Shown: in pieces, positions 23,019 to 47,340 of the stretch
Layout: every line of letters begins with the position of its first letter
Position numbering within the stretch: position 1 is the first letter of the stretch
From: Legionellales bacterium
GTDB lineage: Bacteria; Pseudomonadota; Gammaproteobacteria; JABCZS01
Reading direction: 5' to 3'
NCBI GenBank assembly: GCA_041660525.1
Contig: JBAZWD010000005.1
Coordinates: 673 to 64,672, forward strand
Length of the DNA stretch: 64,000 bases
Notes under the pieces: generated by a model
Seen by the model: only the letters and a program-made list of their open reading frames with translations
The model's database searches: none
What the model was told of the DNA's origin: nothing
Translations under genes and position numbers: made by a program

Positions 23019-23064
23019 GTGGGTCGTGATGAATTCGAACCATCGACCAGCGGATTAAAAGTCC
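23019..23064 (-). repeat. Direct repeat of the 3' 45 nt of tRNA-Lys (att-like site, distal island boundary)
   Basis: gtgggtcgtgatgaattcgaaccatcgaccagcggattaaaagtcc matches 47267-47312 (3' half of the tRNA-Lys gene) with one mismatch. Confidence 0.8.
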
Positions 23065-23359
23065 TAGATGCCGTATATAGTTCTATATAAATCAAAGCCT
23101 TACAATCATCCCCAAATCTCAAAACCCTCTTAAACCGTCTCAATACACCGAAAACCTCGGTGTGTTGTTACAATTTCGTGACAATGATTTTTAATAACGA
23201 TTTGGTATATATTTGAAGTTAGCGCCCCTCTAGCCTTAGAAAAGAATGCCCGCACGTTCGAATCTGCTGTAGCATACTCAGAATCAAACCACTTGACATA
23301 AAAAAGTCACACACATAAAATGTGTTCCATATCATAAACACATAATATGAGTGTGAATT

Positions 23360-26300
23360 ATGGGAAAGTATATACAATTTGGTGAGTTATTGTTTAAGCT
23401 TCGACAAGAAGCTGGTATTGGCGAACAGCATGAGCTAGCTATTTTGCTAAATACCACACAACAAACCATTAGTCGCTGGGAAAAAGGTACATTTCGTCCT
23501 AGGGATACCCAAATGGCAAAGCTTGCATCTATCTTAAGTGCAGATCTTAATGAACTTCTACGAGCAGCTGGATATTTGGATAAAGAGGCTGTTGTTACAT
23601 TTGATAAGCCGCTTTCTTTAGATGCTCTTAACCCAGATAATTTTGAACGTTTTTGTTATTATCTTTTAAATAAACGGTATCCTAATGCAAAGGTTCATCG
23701 TTTTGGTGAATTAGGGCATACACAAAGTGGATTAGATATTGAAGTAATCTTTCCTGACAAAACCTACCACACTTTCCAATGTAAACGAGTAAACCAATTT
23801 GGTCCTGCTAATGTTAATAATGCAGTAAACAAGCATACTCAAACTGCAGATAAAAAGTTTTTGCTACTTAGCCGTGTTGCAAGCCCACAAGCTCGTGATG
23901 CAATACATCAACATCATGATTGGGATATATGGGATAAGGAAGATATTTCTCTATATTTTCGTGAATTATCTAAAGTTGATCAAATCAAACTCGTTGATAT
24001 TTATTTCCGTGGTCAGCGTCTTGCTCTATTAGGCGAAACAGAACCTGGTCCGTGGCAAACCATAGAACAATTCTTCGCACCTTTTATGAATAATGGAGTT
24101 TTTAATCATAGGTGGGATCTAATTGAAAGAGATGAAGAAACACAAACAATAGTCAAATGTTTGGCTGATAAAAATATAAATGTAATATTTCTCACAGGCC
24201 CAGGTGGCACAGGTAAATCACGTGTACTCAAAGCAGCAATTGAGCAATATGAGGCTCATAATAAAACATTGATTCGATTTCTTTCACCGACAGAGAAGGT
24301 AAACAACAAAAGTATCGAACACCTTGGAGAGGATCATAAAATAATTGTTATAGATGATGCCCATGAGCGTGATGACTTAGCAATCCTGTTTCAGTATGTA
24401 GCCACTCCTAGCAGTAATGCAAAGCTTCTACTGTCATTCCGACCATATGGAATCAATTACATTAAGTCTCAAGCTGGCAATTTTTCTTTAACAGGAAACC
24501 GAATATGCCACGTACAATTAAAACCATTTACTCTTGAACAAGCCACTAAACTTGCTACCCAAGTATTAAAAAAATCAAATGGACCAACGGACGTCGCCCA
24601 AAATATAGCTCAACTTACTTTGGAGTGCCCGCTTGCAACAGTAATAGGAGCACAGATTTTTTCAAAAGAAAAAATTCACTTTGAGCTTGTTCAGAATGAA
24701 GAAAATTTTCGCCAGATACTTTTTGGTAAATTTCAGAAGATCATCATTGGAAACATTGGCTCAAAAGCTGATGAAGAATCAATTAAAAAATTATTAGGAA
24801 TAATAGCGCTACTCCAGCCATTTCATCCTGATGATGAATCATTTTTTGCAGCCATAGAAAGTATTGAAAAATTAGCCCGAGAAAAAATACACCGCCTCCT
24901 TCGTCTACTTACAGATGGTGGAATACTGTTCAAGCGGGGTGGAAAATATCGCTTATCACCCGATTTGCTCGGAGATTATATTATTGAAGATATTTGTATT
25001 GGTGAAGGTGGTCGTTCCACAGGCTACGCAGAAAAAATATTTAATGAAATTAGTAATTCTAAGTTAATTGAAAATCTGGTTTTAAACTTAGGAAGACTAG
25101 ATTGGCGTTTGACAAATGGCGACCCAAGTAATAGTCAATTACTAGATAGTATTTGGGGGAAAATTTATGAAAATGATGAATATACTAATTCATGGATTAA
25201 CGTAATTACTCCAGTGGCTTATTACCAGCCGCACAGAGCCTTAAAATTTGCTGAGCAGCTGATACGCAATAAAAAGCACATATACAATTTACCCACTCTT
25301 ATCAAATATGCAGCGTATAATATTAAATATCTTCGATATGCATGCGAATGTTTATGGGAAATAGCTAAACGTGAGGAAATAACATCTAACGAGCATTCAG
25401 GACAAGCTATACGCATCCTTTATGAACTTTGCTCAATCGAGCCAAACCGACCTATTGAATACAATAAGATTGTTGTTGATTTTGGTCTTTCATTGCTTGA
25501 GCGAGATGATGTTTGGGAATTTCCTTCTACGCCACTTGATTTTCTTGGTGGAATTCTTCAAACTGAAAACTATACAAGTAATTACAATGGTGTTAATGTC
25601 GAATTCTCCGCATTCAACATTCTTAGTAACGAATTAATATCTCAAGTTCGAACTAAAGTGATTGATGCTACTATTAATCTTCTTGCTCATTCAAAACTAA
25701 AAATTGCCATAAGAGCAGCAATTCTTTTAGGCAAAAGCATTCAATATCCGCTAGGCATATTTGGCGCTCGAATATCAAAAGAGAACTGGGATGTATGGAC
25801 ACCAGGATTTGTTCAAACATTAAAAAAAATTGAAGAAGTAACTCAAACTAGAAACCTTAATTCTCTTGTTCTAATTAAAATTATTCGCGCAATCATATGG
25901 CATGCGCGTCATGCTGAAACTGATACAGCTTCAATAGCGAAGCAAATTATTGCATCTCTGCCAACCACACTTGAATTTCGGACAACGCTTGCGTTAGTAG
26001 ATGGGTTTAATCATATCTTTCAGCAATTAGACCATGAAGAAGATGGCTGTGAATTAGAAGAGCGACATCAAAGGCTTGTGAATGATCTCACATCCACCTA
26101 TTTGGATGGTGAAAATTTAAGAACATTTATTGAAGGTTTTTTATTACAGATTGAAAATCATGATACGTTGATTAAAGCATCACCATATGCTTTTTATTGG
26201 AAACTAATTCAATCGTCAAAAAAATTTACTAAAGCAACTATTGAAAATGCGCTTACTAATTCAAAATCCATGACAAAAAAGTTTGCCGGAATGGCTCTTT

Positions 26301-46438: not shown

Positions 46439-47037
46439 TATAATCCTCTGTTATATTGCTCTACTGCTTCACTCATCCATGCTGGCATTGAGCAAGAACG
46501 CAATGCTTCAAATTCTTTTTTACTCATTCCTTTTCGAATTTTGTATAAAGTTGATGCATTCAACTGCTCTTTACCAAGATACCATAATAATGCCAGAATA
46601 TTCCCTATTTTTTTGCCAGCGTACTGTAGTTTTTGATGATTATTTGTGTGAATAAATTTTACTTTTAATTCACCAATACGAATAATGCGCGTTGTACCGC
46701 TTGTATAATAAACTGGCTGTATTGGAACTTGTGTGCTGATCTTAAATTGATTTGCAGCTACCGCGCCATGCAATTGTATGGTTTCGCCATTTTTCTTTGC
46801 AATTAAATTGATTACTTTGGAAATTTCTGGCGGAACTTTACCCACGAATCGATTATATTCTGAGCGTACAAATATTCCGGGACGCAATCTCTGGATTAAA
46901 CCTTCATTTACAAAACGTGACAGTGTCTTATCAATCACTGTACGTGTATAACCTGCTTTAATAAAAACCTCTGTGCTAAATGGCTGGCCTTGTTTAAAGC
47001 GAAATACATGTAATTTTATCTTTTCTGCAATTGACAT
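46438..47037 (-). CDS. abiEi: AbiEi-family antitoxin (wHTH), start at MSIAEK
   Basis: RBS aagagg plus ATG at 47037. KIKLHVFRFKQGQPFSTEVF...LSRFVNEGLIQRLRPGIF. Stop overlaps the abiEii start (ATGA). Confidence 0.6.
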   Translation of the reverse strand: MSIAEKIKLHVFRFKQGQPFSTEVFIKAGYTRTVIDKTLSRFVNEGLIQRLRPGIFVRSEYNRFVGKVPPEISKVINLIAKKNGETIQLHGAVAANQFKISTQVPIQPVYYTSGTTRIIRIGELKVKFIHTNNHQKLQYAGKKIGNILALLWYLGKEQLNASTLYKIRKGMSKKEFEALRSCSMPAWMSEAVEQYNRGL

Positions 47038-47267
47038 ATGGGCCTCTTGTCTGAAATTATAGCATATTATCTGACAATATGGCAATGCTCTTATTGCTAA
47101 TAAGTTATTATAAATCAAAGGGTAATATATTAAGACTCCACACCCATCAAAGCATATCTTATTGTTTTTATTAACTTTGACACAAATTTGGCACAATGGG
47201 ACAGTAATAATAACTAAAGAATGTTAACTAGGGTTTCGTAAGATATTGTTTTTATTATAATTTAAAG

Positions 47268-47340
47268 TGGGTCGTGATGGATTCGAACCATCGACCAGCG
47301 GATTAAAAGTCCGATGCTCTACCAACTGAGCTAACGACCC
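47268..47340 (-). tRNA. tRNA-Lys (anticodon UUU); CCA not encoded
   Basis: The reverse complement GGGTCGTTAGCTCAGTTGGTAGAGCATCGGACTTTTAATCCGCTGGTCGATGGTTCGAATCCATCACGACCCA forms a cloverleaf with anticodon loop CTTTTAA. It is near-identical to E. coli tRNA-Lys. Confidence 0.9.

Follow-up and report, generated by a model that had tools for sequence, protein, structure and literature searches.

The 64-kb window analysed here, a stretch of contig JBAZWD010000005.1 (assembly GCA_041660525.1) from a Legionellales bacterium, raises the question of how a single tRNA-Lys(UUU) gene came to be followed by displaced copies of its own 3' half, with a long tract of accessory genes between and beyond them. 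A first-pass annotation had proposed that the locus is a tRNA-Lys hotspot, that the copies mark the junctions of serial integrations, and that two islands without a recombinase end at 23019. The hotspot and its junctions withstand closer analysis, whereas the number of islands does not. As we show below, the locus is probably (with a confidence of about 0.87) a tandem array of at least three decayed integrative elements, here termed islands A, B and C from the tRNA gene outwards, which was built by repeated site-specific integration at a bacterial attachment site (attB) in the anticodon loop of tRNA-Lys.

ARAGORN and Rfam agree that the window contains a single tRNA gene, and the 3' half of this gene recurs twice downstream in the same orientation:

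47267-47340, minus strand: intact tRNA-Lys(UUU) gene (ARAGORN; Rfam tRNA, 75.8 bits)
47267-47311, minus strand: core copy 1, no mismatches; attB, the tRNA-proximal junction
43399-43443, minus strand: core copy 2, a displaced tRNA-Lys 3' half with one mismatch; internal junction between islands A and B
23019-23063, minus strand: core copy 3, a displaced tRNA-Lys 3' half with one mismatch; junction of islands B and C, internal to the array rather than terminal

The 45-nt core reads GACTTTTAATCC...GACCCAC; it begins two bases ahead of the anticodon loop and ends with the final acceptor-stem base. Three co-oriented copies were observed where none is expected by chance, and 100 dinucleotide shuffles contained no match, which confirms the copies first annotated; the end assigned to copy 3, 23064, was at most one base off. 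Similarity between the three copies extends ~20 nt beyond the tRNA 3' end (repeat family D4: 22998-23064, 43378-43444 and 47246-47312). As a different sequence follows the tRNA in a relative with an empty site (L124, see below), these ~20 shared nucleotides are derived from the elements and not from the chromosome. Both here and in a parallel array (L128, see below) the fragments start 2-3 nt 5' of the anticodon loop, a position typical of the common 'anticodon-centred' class of element attachment sites (attP) defined by Islander (PMC4383910).

Scanning metagenomes with the 45-mer identified 41 loci, 40 of which belong to high-GC organisms with the same tRNA-Lys sequence, L115 being the only relative. 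Three unrelated high-GC contigs (L091, L099 and L100) carry the identical 45-nt 3' half without a tRNA 5' half, indicating that further elements, in other bacteria, target this conserved tRNA at the same sublocation. Scans of viral contigs with the core plus integrase-side motif, the R1 motif plus core, or the 45-mer alone returned no matches.

Beyond the tRNA-derived cores lie conserved arms, consisting of a distal (P) arm, termed R1, on one side and an integrase-side (P') arm on the other:

47177-47266, minus strand: P' arm of island A, cut short (blastn against the occupied relative L123, motif search, alignment)
43444-43566, minus strand: R1-A, the distal arm of island A (repeat family D2, alignment)
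43368-43398, minus strand: P' arm of island B, first part, which continues at 40248-40319 once an insertion sequence (IS) is removed
40248-40319, minus strand: P' arm of island B, second part, with 88-96% identity to 22860-22986 (families D6 and D8)
23064-23186, minus strand: R1-B, the distal arm of island B, with its blocks ordered as in R1-A
22860-23018, minus strand: P' arm of island C, cut off at 22860, with motif TGTCACGAAATTGTAAC at 22932-22948

The R1 repeat, reported by the first-pass annotation beside the tRNA fragments, is real and is indeed an attachment-site arm. It extends beyond the cores at 23064-23192 and 43444-43572, 5' of the fragments in the direction of the tRNA, and the two copies are 75% identical when the core is counted in (family D2: 23014-23192 against 43394-43572). 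That R1 is the distal arm of attP follows from L128, where an R1 homologue stands before each tRNA-Ser-like fragment, and a P' arm and an intact integrase gene stand after it. The four R1 copies of the window and L128 share one block order, which ends at the core: two TGTNNC half-sites 11 nt apart, a hairpin, two CRGTTTT repeats ~11 nt apart, and an invariant TTGATTTATATA, the complement of which matches the consensus for integration host factor (IHF). In R1-A these blocks are represented by motif TGTGCCAAAATTGTGTC (43547-43563), the hairpin, the two direct repeats and the IHF-consensus match (43470-43482); R1-B has motif TGTCACGAAATTGTAAC at 23167-23183 and the IHF-consensus match at 23090-23102. 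An alignment of seven P' arms revealed a common TAATAAAAACAA...GTTTTAGTTAAC and, immediately ahead of the integrase stop codon, the two-half-site motif. Island A has this motif as TGTGCCAAATTTGTGTC (47179-47195) in its P' arm, where homology to L123 ends at 47177, 7 nt from the stop codon of the L123 integrase (blastn, L123 8613-9570 against window 47177-48105).

The motif TGTNNC-N5-TGTNNC occurs four times in the 64 kb, always on the minus strand and always within an arm, and its variant agrees within an element: both arms of island A have TGTGCC, the type also seen in L123; R1-B and island C's P' arm have TGTCAC. The P' arm of island B has a degenerate copy (40265-40282), recognized by alignment. 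By analogy with lambda-type attP sites the motif is likely to be the arm-type site of the integrase, and the CRGTTTT repeats, restricted to R1, are putative excisionase sites; these assignments, and that of the IHF block, rest on position and on conservation across four to seven sequences. The IHF-consensus match was rejected as stand-alone evidence because the consensus is too frequent in this AT-rich DNA (21 matches against 10.7 expected). No further copy of R1 or of the arm motif was found within the 64 kb, R1 and the arms matched no RNA family in Rfam, where tRNA was the sole family detected, and a plasmid collection contained no attP-like match to R1-core-P', the best integrase match there being 46% identical.

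The enzymes that would act on these sites are absent. Pfam searches of all open reading frames (ORFs) of at least 90 aa in 1-47340 identified no intact tyrosine or serine recombinase or excisionase, and a six-frame Pfam scan of every intergenic stretch longer than 150 bp revealed no recombinase and no PF00589 domain. Pfam scans of 1-47340 also returned no HTH_17 excisionase, relaxase or type IV secretion system domain. Two ORFs had been considered as divergent recombinases because of their position beside the arms, and both were rejected as they lack a recombinase domain: the 331-aa product of 38949-39944 is coiled-coil and of low complexity, and the 538-aa product of 43739-45355 matches PDC-S49. 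The earlier statement that the region is devoid of a recombinase is therefore correct in the sense that there is no intact gene and no working integrase; it does not hold for two remnants:

40116-40247, plus strand: tyrosine-integrase remnant of island B, the last 44 codons (residues 286-329 of 331)
22860-22913, plus strand: integrase remnant of island C, the last 18 codons (residues 312-329)

The island B remnant holds LGGWSSYKSMQNYTHLY, the region of the catalytic tyrosine, and one in-frame stop, and the frame upstream of it is unrelated. In tblastn searches it was matched by the L123 integrase (75% identity, E 2e-16) and by the proteins P0073 and P0074 (79-80% identity, E about 4e-18). LGGWSSYKSMQNYTHLY aligns with the C-termini of the PF00589 proteins P0072-P0075 and displays the features of a tyrosine-recombinase C terminus (nucleophilic Tyr, LGH/LGG...Y); the complete catalytic domain (R...K...HxxR...H/W) and the N-terminal DNA-binding domain are missing. 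The island C remnant, 67% identical to the L123 integrase (E 0.009), is convincing only together with the 88% nucleotide identity between its arm and that of island B. We conclude that the two remnants are stumps of the integrase genes of islands B and C. The family to which they belong is large (3,635 homologues at E<=1e-30), and within its tRNA-Lys clade (P0072-P0075) the same backbone of an integrative and conjugative element (ICE) was seen in three of the four contexts.

Relatives of the locus were recovered by a homologue search with the outer membrane protein (OMP) encoded next to the tRNA gene, followed by look-ups of genomic context. Together with a parallel array in another setting, they provide the reference states against which the window can be read:

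L123 (JGI Ga0480561_0000568): occupied site; accA, tilS, three OMP genes and tRNA-Lys, then an integrase gene
L124/L125 (JGI Ga0206858_1007 and a Logan contig): empty site; the same right-flank synteny and an intact tRNA-Lys
L128 (JGI Ga0376277_0001431), locus 1-11747: tandem array, with integrases 56-59% identical to that of L123

In L123 a 331-aa Phage_integrase gene converges on the tRNA and is followed by AAA_25, CHP02642, TraL and TraE genes. L126 and L129 contain the same backbone, L126 next to an identical tRNA-Lys in another chromosomal context, and all 74 nt of the window's tRNA-Lys are identical to the integrase-adjoining tRNA-Lys of L123 and L126. The L123 sequence between tRNA and integrase, with the integrase 3' end, matches window 40117-40231 (85% over 115 nt), and also 22860-22928, 22978-23071 and 47177-47266. 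In L124/L125, tRNA-Lys is followed by a 342-aa ORF and genes for a uracil-DNA glycosylase (UDG)-family protein, TusA, an M48 peptidase, a P-type ATPase and a LysR regulator, with no tRNA fragment, integrase or island in the 8.6 kb beyond the tRNA. The tRNA-Lys site is thus occupied by an F-type ICE in L123 and empty in L124/L125. The islands are absent at the same site in a relative, as the Islander scheme requires, on the evidence of the one lineage L124/L125.

L128 contains two tRNA-Ser(UGA)-like 3' fragments, an identity read from their anticodon loop, CTTGAAA; ARAGORN called no tRNA gene in this locus. After each fragment the P' arm and integrase gene are accompanied by an HTH_17 gene, and the array indicates that tandem accretion recurs in this integrase family. 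One member of the L128 array carries arsenic-resistance genes (ArsR, Acr3 and ArsC) adjoining its R1 arm, and another carries ParE/PaaA2 together with a DUF6088 (AbiEi-like) gene.

Only one other assembly, the 9.9-kb contig L081 (Logan SRR18595301), shares an identical accA-to-OMP segment with the window. It was reached through AccA; exact-protein look-ups with OMP, the 1655-aa protein, ArdA, P0001 and AbiEii found no record. It stops inside tRNA-Lys (9700-9898), precisely where the 45-nt repeat starts, as expected if the repeat is also present in that sample and breaks the assembly graph.

These comparisons bear directly on the number of elements. The stretch between 23018 and 22860 shares 88% identity with the P' arm of island B. 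Since an integrase-side arm and not chromosome follows copy 3, this copy is an internal junction; to the left of it there is a third element or the stump of one, which brings the array to at least three members. The two islands first proposed are consequently an undercount. The empty-site check suggested with them, in which tRNA-Lys would be directly followed by the sequence at or before 22866, is not borne out: the genes that follow the tRNA in L124 occur nowhere in the window. A boundary placed at copy 3 would mislead any such comparison. The point at which the array meets the chromosome at its distal end is thus beyond the window, unless this junction has been deleted.

The P' arm of island B is itself informative, as it has been split by a mobile element that was in turn invaded by another:

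40320-43359: IS66-family element of 3,040 bp in the P' arm of island B (inverted repeats, Pfam)
~40645-41901: IS3 element nested in, and splitting, the IS66 tnpC (orfA 40675-41010, orfB 41007-41873)

Ends with GTAA and 8-bp target duplications typify IS66. The element has perfect 25-bp terminal inverted repeats (GTAACTTC...) starting with GTAA, is flanked by the 8-bp duplication ACTAAAAC at 40312-40319 and 43360-43367, and contains DDE_Tnp_IS66 (PF03050, 3e-16), rve and HTH_Tnp_1 domains, and so belongs to this family. It inserted 31 nt beyond the position of the tRNA end. After removal of the IS and one copy of the duplication, the arm is colinear with that of island C, with 112 of 127 positions identical.

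We propose the following history for the locus. Integrations would have been catalysed by the family of ~331-aa tyrosine integrases that relatives carry on F-type ICEs. Each incoming attP would have consisted of the distal arm R1, a 45-nt copy of the tRNA 3' half and the integrase-side arm, with the integrase gene converging on the core; crossover probably took place within the 7-nt anticodon loop. Integration would restore the tRNA from the element's own copy and displace the earlier 3' half outwards, which is why copies 2 and 3 now look attP-like (R1, core, P'). Because each integration displaces the earlier half and island A is proximal to the tRNA, A was probably the last to arrive and C the first, with B between them. 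The integration and transfer modules would subsequently have been lost through deletion and IS activity. In island C the integrase is reduced to 18 codons next to an IS3 remnant, the likely agent of the truncation; in island B it has shrunk to 44 codons, the P' arm being split by the IS66-family insertion; in island A it has disappeared altogether, such that abiEi now abuts the arm. What remains between the attachment sites is cargo: AbiE, the PDC-S49 candidate, three STAND/NLR-like genes, and ankyrin and lipase-like genes of effector type. The islands are unlikely to be able to move on their own at present. This pattern fits the published three-step model of integration, decay to a cis-mobilisable element (CIME) and then accretion (PMC5704250).

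Several points weigh against this interpretation. Because the window contains no distal chromosomal junction (R1, core, then chromosome), the extent of the array given here is a minimum, and the membership of 1-22355 in island C is putative. Taken alone, the integrase remnant of island C is a weak match, with E values of 0.002-0.009 across queries. The arm-motif pattern was derived from these same sequences, and its count in the window is therefore not an independent test. The integrase search covers the 64-kb window, the relatives recovered comprise one empty-site and one occupied syntenic locus only, and every mechanistic step is deduced from sequence.

It could be argued that the islands are not relics but functional hitch-hikers, whose attachment sites are recombined in trans or in cis by the integrase (Int) and excisionase (Xis) of a cognate ICE, either resident at another place in the genome or a later arrival, and that A or A+B still excises and could be transferred. 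Island A, 3.8 kb in size, still has both arms, which agree in motif type, and its tRNA-side core is perfect; related samples contain full-length integrases with 75-80% identity to the remnant, and transfer of CIME-ICE tandems has been shown in other bacteria (PMC5704250). Island A, or the A+B block, could in principle be excised by cognate Int and Xis supplied from elsewhere. It should be emphasized, however, that the 64-kb window holds no cognate integrase or excisionase, that the P' arm of island A is truncated right behind the motif, and that no circular-junction sequence was found, L081 merely breaking at the repeat. The 3-kb IS between the core and the P' arm motif should disable the tRNA-proximal site of island B, and for this reason B alone is probably not excisable. 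Continuing mobility is an unlikely reading, albeit the likeliest of the rival ones.

Slightly less likely is the view that the array arrived pre-assembled from a previous host, or that recombination between related resident elements gave rise to copies 2 and 3. Identity of 88-96% between the P' arms of B and C is consistent with duplication or with recombination between sister elements, and transfer of composite tandems is documented (PMC5704250). On the other hand, apart from arms and IS fragments, no long repeats are common to the cargo of A, that of B and the left region, and island A differs from B and C in the motif type of its arms. This view is a variant of serial accretion rather than an alternative to it; the data fit accretion in situ and accretion elsewhere alike.

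A more speculative extension, which we consider doubtful, is that integrase-less cassettes such as island A are maintained as minimal, att-only defence cassettes that use the Int and Xis of a widespread ICE family, with R1 as a portable 'handle' across tRNA specificities (Lys here, Ser in L128). Were this so, the tRNA hotspots of Legionellales would somewhat resemble integron platforms for defence and effector genes. Finally, the proposal that the 45-mers and R1 are a generic dispersed repeat, resembling a miniature inverted-repeat (MITE) or short interspersed (SINE) element, or remnants of tRNA duplication, for which it can be said that copy number is known for the window only, is effectively refuted: all copies are co-oriented and confined to the DNA downstream of the single tRNA-Lys, no other R1 or motif copy and no Rfam family but tRNA was found in the 64 kb, and both flanks are homologous to the flanks of integrase-adjoining fragments in L123, L126 and L128, one of them containing integrase coding sequence.

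We return to serial integration and to the genes that it appears to have brought together. Base composition sets the accessory DNA apart, as GC content drops from 39.6-39.7% in the core flank to 35% in both island B and the left 22.9 kb, and to 32% in island A. The cargo of island A occupies 43739-47196 on the minus strand (PADLOC, Pfam):

46438-47196, minus strand: abiEi (PADLOC AbiEi 5e-52; Pfam DUF6088), with the true start probably further downstream
45428-46438, minus strand: abiEii (PADLOC AbiEii 7e-96; Pfam AbiEii)
43739-45355, minus strand: PDC-S49-like candidate defence protein, 538 aa (PADLOC PDC-S49 3e-17)

The cargo of island B spans 23360-39944 on both strands (Pfam, PADLOC, six-frame scan):

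23360-27367, plus strand: HTH-STAND NTPase
27919-32216, minus strand: lipase-like and NB-ARC-TPR protein, frameshifted
32518-33327, minus strand: GNAT protein
33324-34088, minus strand: haem-oxygenase-like protein
34358-36208, plus strand: unknown protein, 616 aa
36426-37406, plus strand: second IS66-family remnant (TnpA, TnpB and the N-terminal coiled coil of TnpC)
37485-38111, minus strand: ankyrin protein
38415-38927, minus strand: ankyrin protein
38949-39944, minus strand: coiled-coil protein, 331 aa

Within the frameshifted gene, a run of nine A residues (30505-30513) marks the overlap of the lipase-like ORF (30498-32216) and the NB-ARC+TPR frame (27919-30519; no start codon before 30069). 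A single frameshift at this run would fuse both into a ~1,430-aa lipase-NB-ARC-TPR protein resembling NLRs; the overlap may reflect a sequencing error, a pseudogene or a slippery tract. The architecture is of the same class as that of the Lipase_3-NACHT-HEAT gene at 15709-22284, in the left region:

22356-22796, plus strand: IS3 orfA remnant (six-frame Pfam HTH_Tnp_1 9e-11), adjoining the truncated integrase of island C
1-22355: low-GC accessory DNA (35.0% against 39.6% in the core flank)
15709-22284, plus strand: Lipase_3-NACHT-HEAT protein, 2,191 aa (Pfam)
15095-15523, plus strand: IS3 orfB remnant (six-frame Pfam)
14240-14792: PemK/MazF toxin and a possible antitoxin ORF (76 aa, no Pfam match)
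6003-6518: ArdA
535-5502: ankyrin protein, 1655 aa

Either this tract forms the body of island C, or an IS-mediated rearrangement has placed unrelated DNA beside it; 1-22355 contains no R1, no tRNA fragment, no ICE backbone and none of the genes that flank the empty site of L124. The Lipase_3-NACHT-HEAT gene is flanked, on its own strand, by the orfB and orfA remnants of IS3; with orfB before the gene and orfA after it, the arrangement implies either that two IS copies were truncated or that the region was rearranged. A direct duplication with 80-81% identity (blocks 11799-12034/12963-13198 and 12416-12527/13623-13734) is formed by the neighbouring ankyrin-repeat genes at 11705-12262 and 12878-13423 and the regions downstream of them. 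A homologue search with the 1655-aa ankyrin protein found nothing at E<=1e-40.

The first-pass annotation had described the islands as loaded with defence-like and NLR-like genes. This is partly right, as it fits AbiE, the PDC-S49 candidate and the three STAND/NLR-like genes; it leaves out the ankyrin and lipase genes of effector type, which make up much of the cargo, and the IS debris. The AbiEi and AbiEii matches are strong, and the STAND/NLR-like proteins have a weak PADLOC match or none.

From 47462 onward the right flank is core genome: two Legionella_OMP paralogues, tilS, accA, Nramp, miaB, phoH, ybeY and corC. The two paralogues (Lpg1974 family; 47462-49428) lie between tRNA-Lys and tilS, compared with three in L123 and L124. 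In public data, OMP homologues come from metagenome-assembled genomes labelled Legionellales or Gammaproteobacteria. The closest matches in a GTDB scan with TilS were 61% and 50% identical, and were dropped from the empty-site comparison as there is no tRNA near tilS. A 6.7-kb stretch between Nramp and miaB (52746-59439) encodes ORFs of 719, 832 and 381 aa with no convincing Pfam match; Nramp and miaB are directly adjacent in L123 and L124, which identifies it as a second lineage-specific insertion. No tRNA gene was called within it.

The array can be compared with several characterized systems. It is most similar to CIMEs and to the tandem accretion of ICEs and integrative and mobilisable elements (IMEs) exemplified by ICESt1/CIME of Streptococcus thermophilus (PMC5704250). 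In both cases the elements have attL/attR-type bounds, stand in tandem at the 3' end of the target gene with chimeric, attP-like internal junctions, and no longer possess genes for integration and transfer. Each of islands A and B has retained its bounds, a core copy with a P' arm at one end, interrupted by the IS in B, and a core copy with R1 at the other; the recombination and conjugation modules are gone. The window differs in that it contains no functional ICE partner, cis-mobilisation being only predicted from its sequence, in its host, a Legionellales-like uncultured gammaproteobacterium, in its target, tRNA-Lys, and in decay driven by IS66-family and IS3 elements. It thereby shows how, in this lineage, one tRNA gene can gather more than 47 kb of accessory DNA through repeated integration and IS-driven decay, including AbiE, a candidate defence gene, three NLR-like STAND proteins, and eukaryote-like ankyrin and lipase proteins.

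Tandem islands in tRNA genes are already well known, and Islander listed 125 arrays of at least two members and treated those of at least three as rare, with four among 3,919 islands (PMC4383910). Like the islands defined by Islander/TIGER, those described here have a regenerated tRNA, displaced 3' fragments in direct orientation that mark the island ends, a start at the anticodon stem-loop and an integrase of the tyrosine family. In contrast, Islander demands an integrase gene (PF00589) for each array member. As no member here has its own, the array would be filtered out, and integrase-requiring finders of this kind would miss it.

F-type ICEs of Legionella and relatives integrate at tRNA genes. 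L123, L126 and L129 resemble these, combining a tRNA-adjacent tyrosine integrase with TraL, TraE, TraK and TraB(TrbI)-type genes. The integrase, relaxase and type IV secretion system that define an ICE are present in these three loci, whereas the window lacks the conjugation backbone: tblastx against the backbones of L123, L126 and L129 gave no match, and ArdA (6003-6518) is the sole hint of a conjugative past. The attachment sites, for their part, resemble the lambda-type attP, in which a tandem half-site motif stands on both arms and only one arm has a second pair of direct repeats and an IHF-consensus match between these repeats and the core; the allocation of blocks to Int, Xis and IHF is a prediction. 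The attP anatomy of a widespread integrase family is thereby defined, with its motif on both arms, its repeats confined to R1 and its core at the anticodon loop. The current understanding of island biology is unchanged by this locus, which is a well-resolved example, from a poorly sampled lineage, of tandem accretion within known principles.

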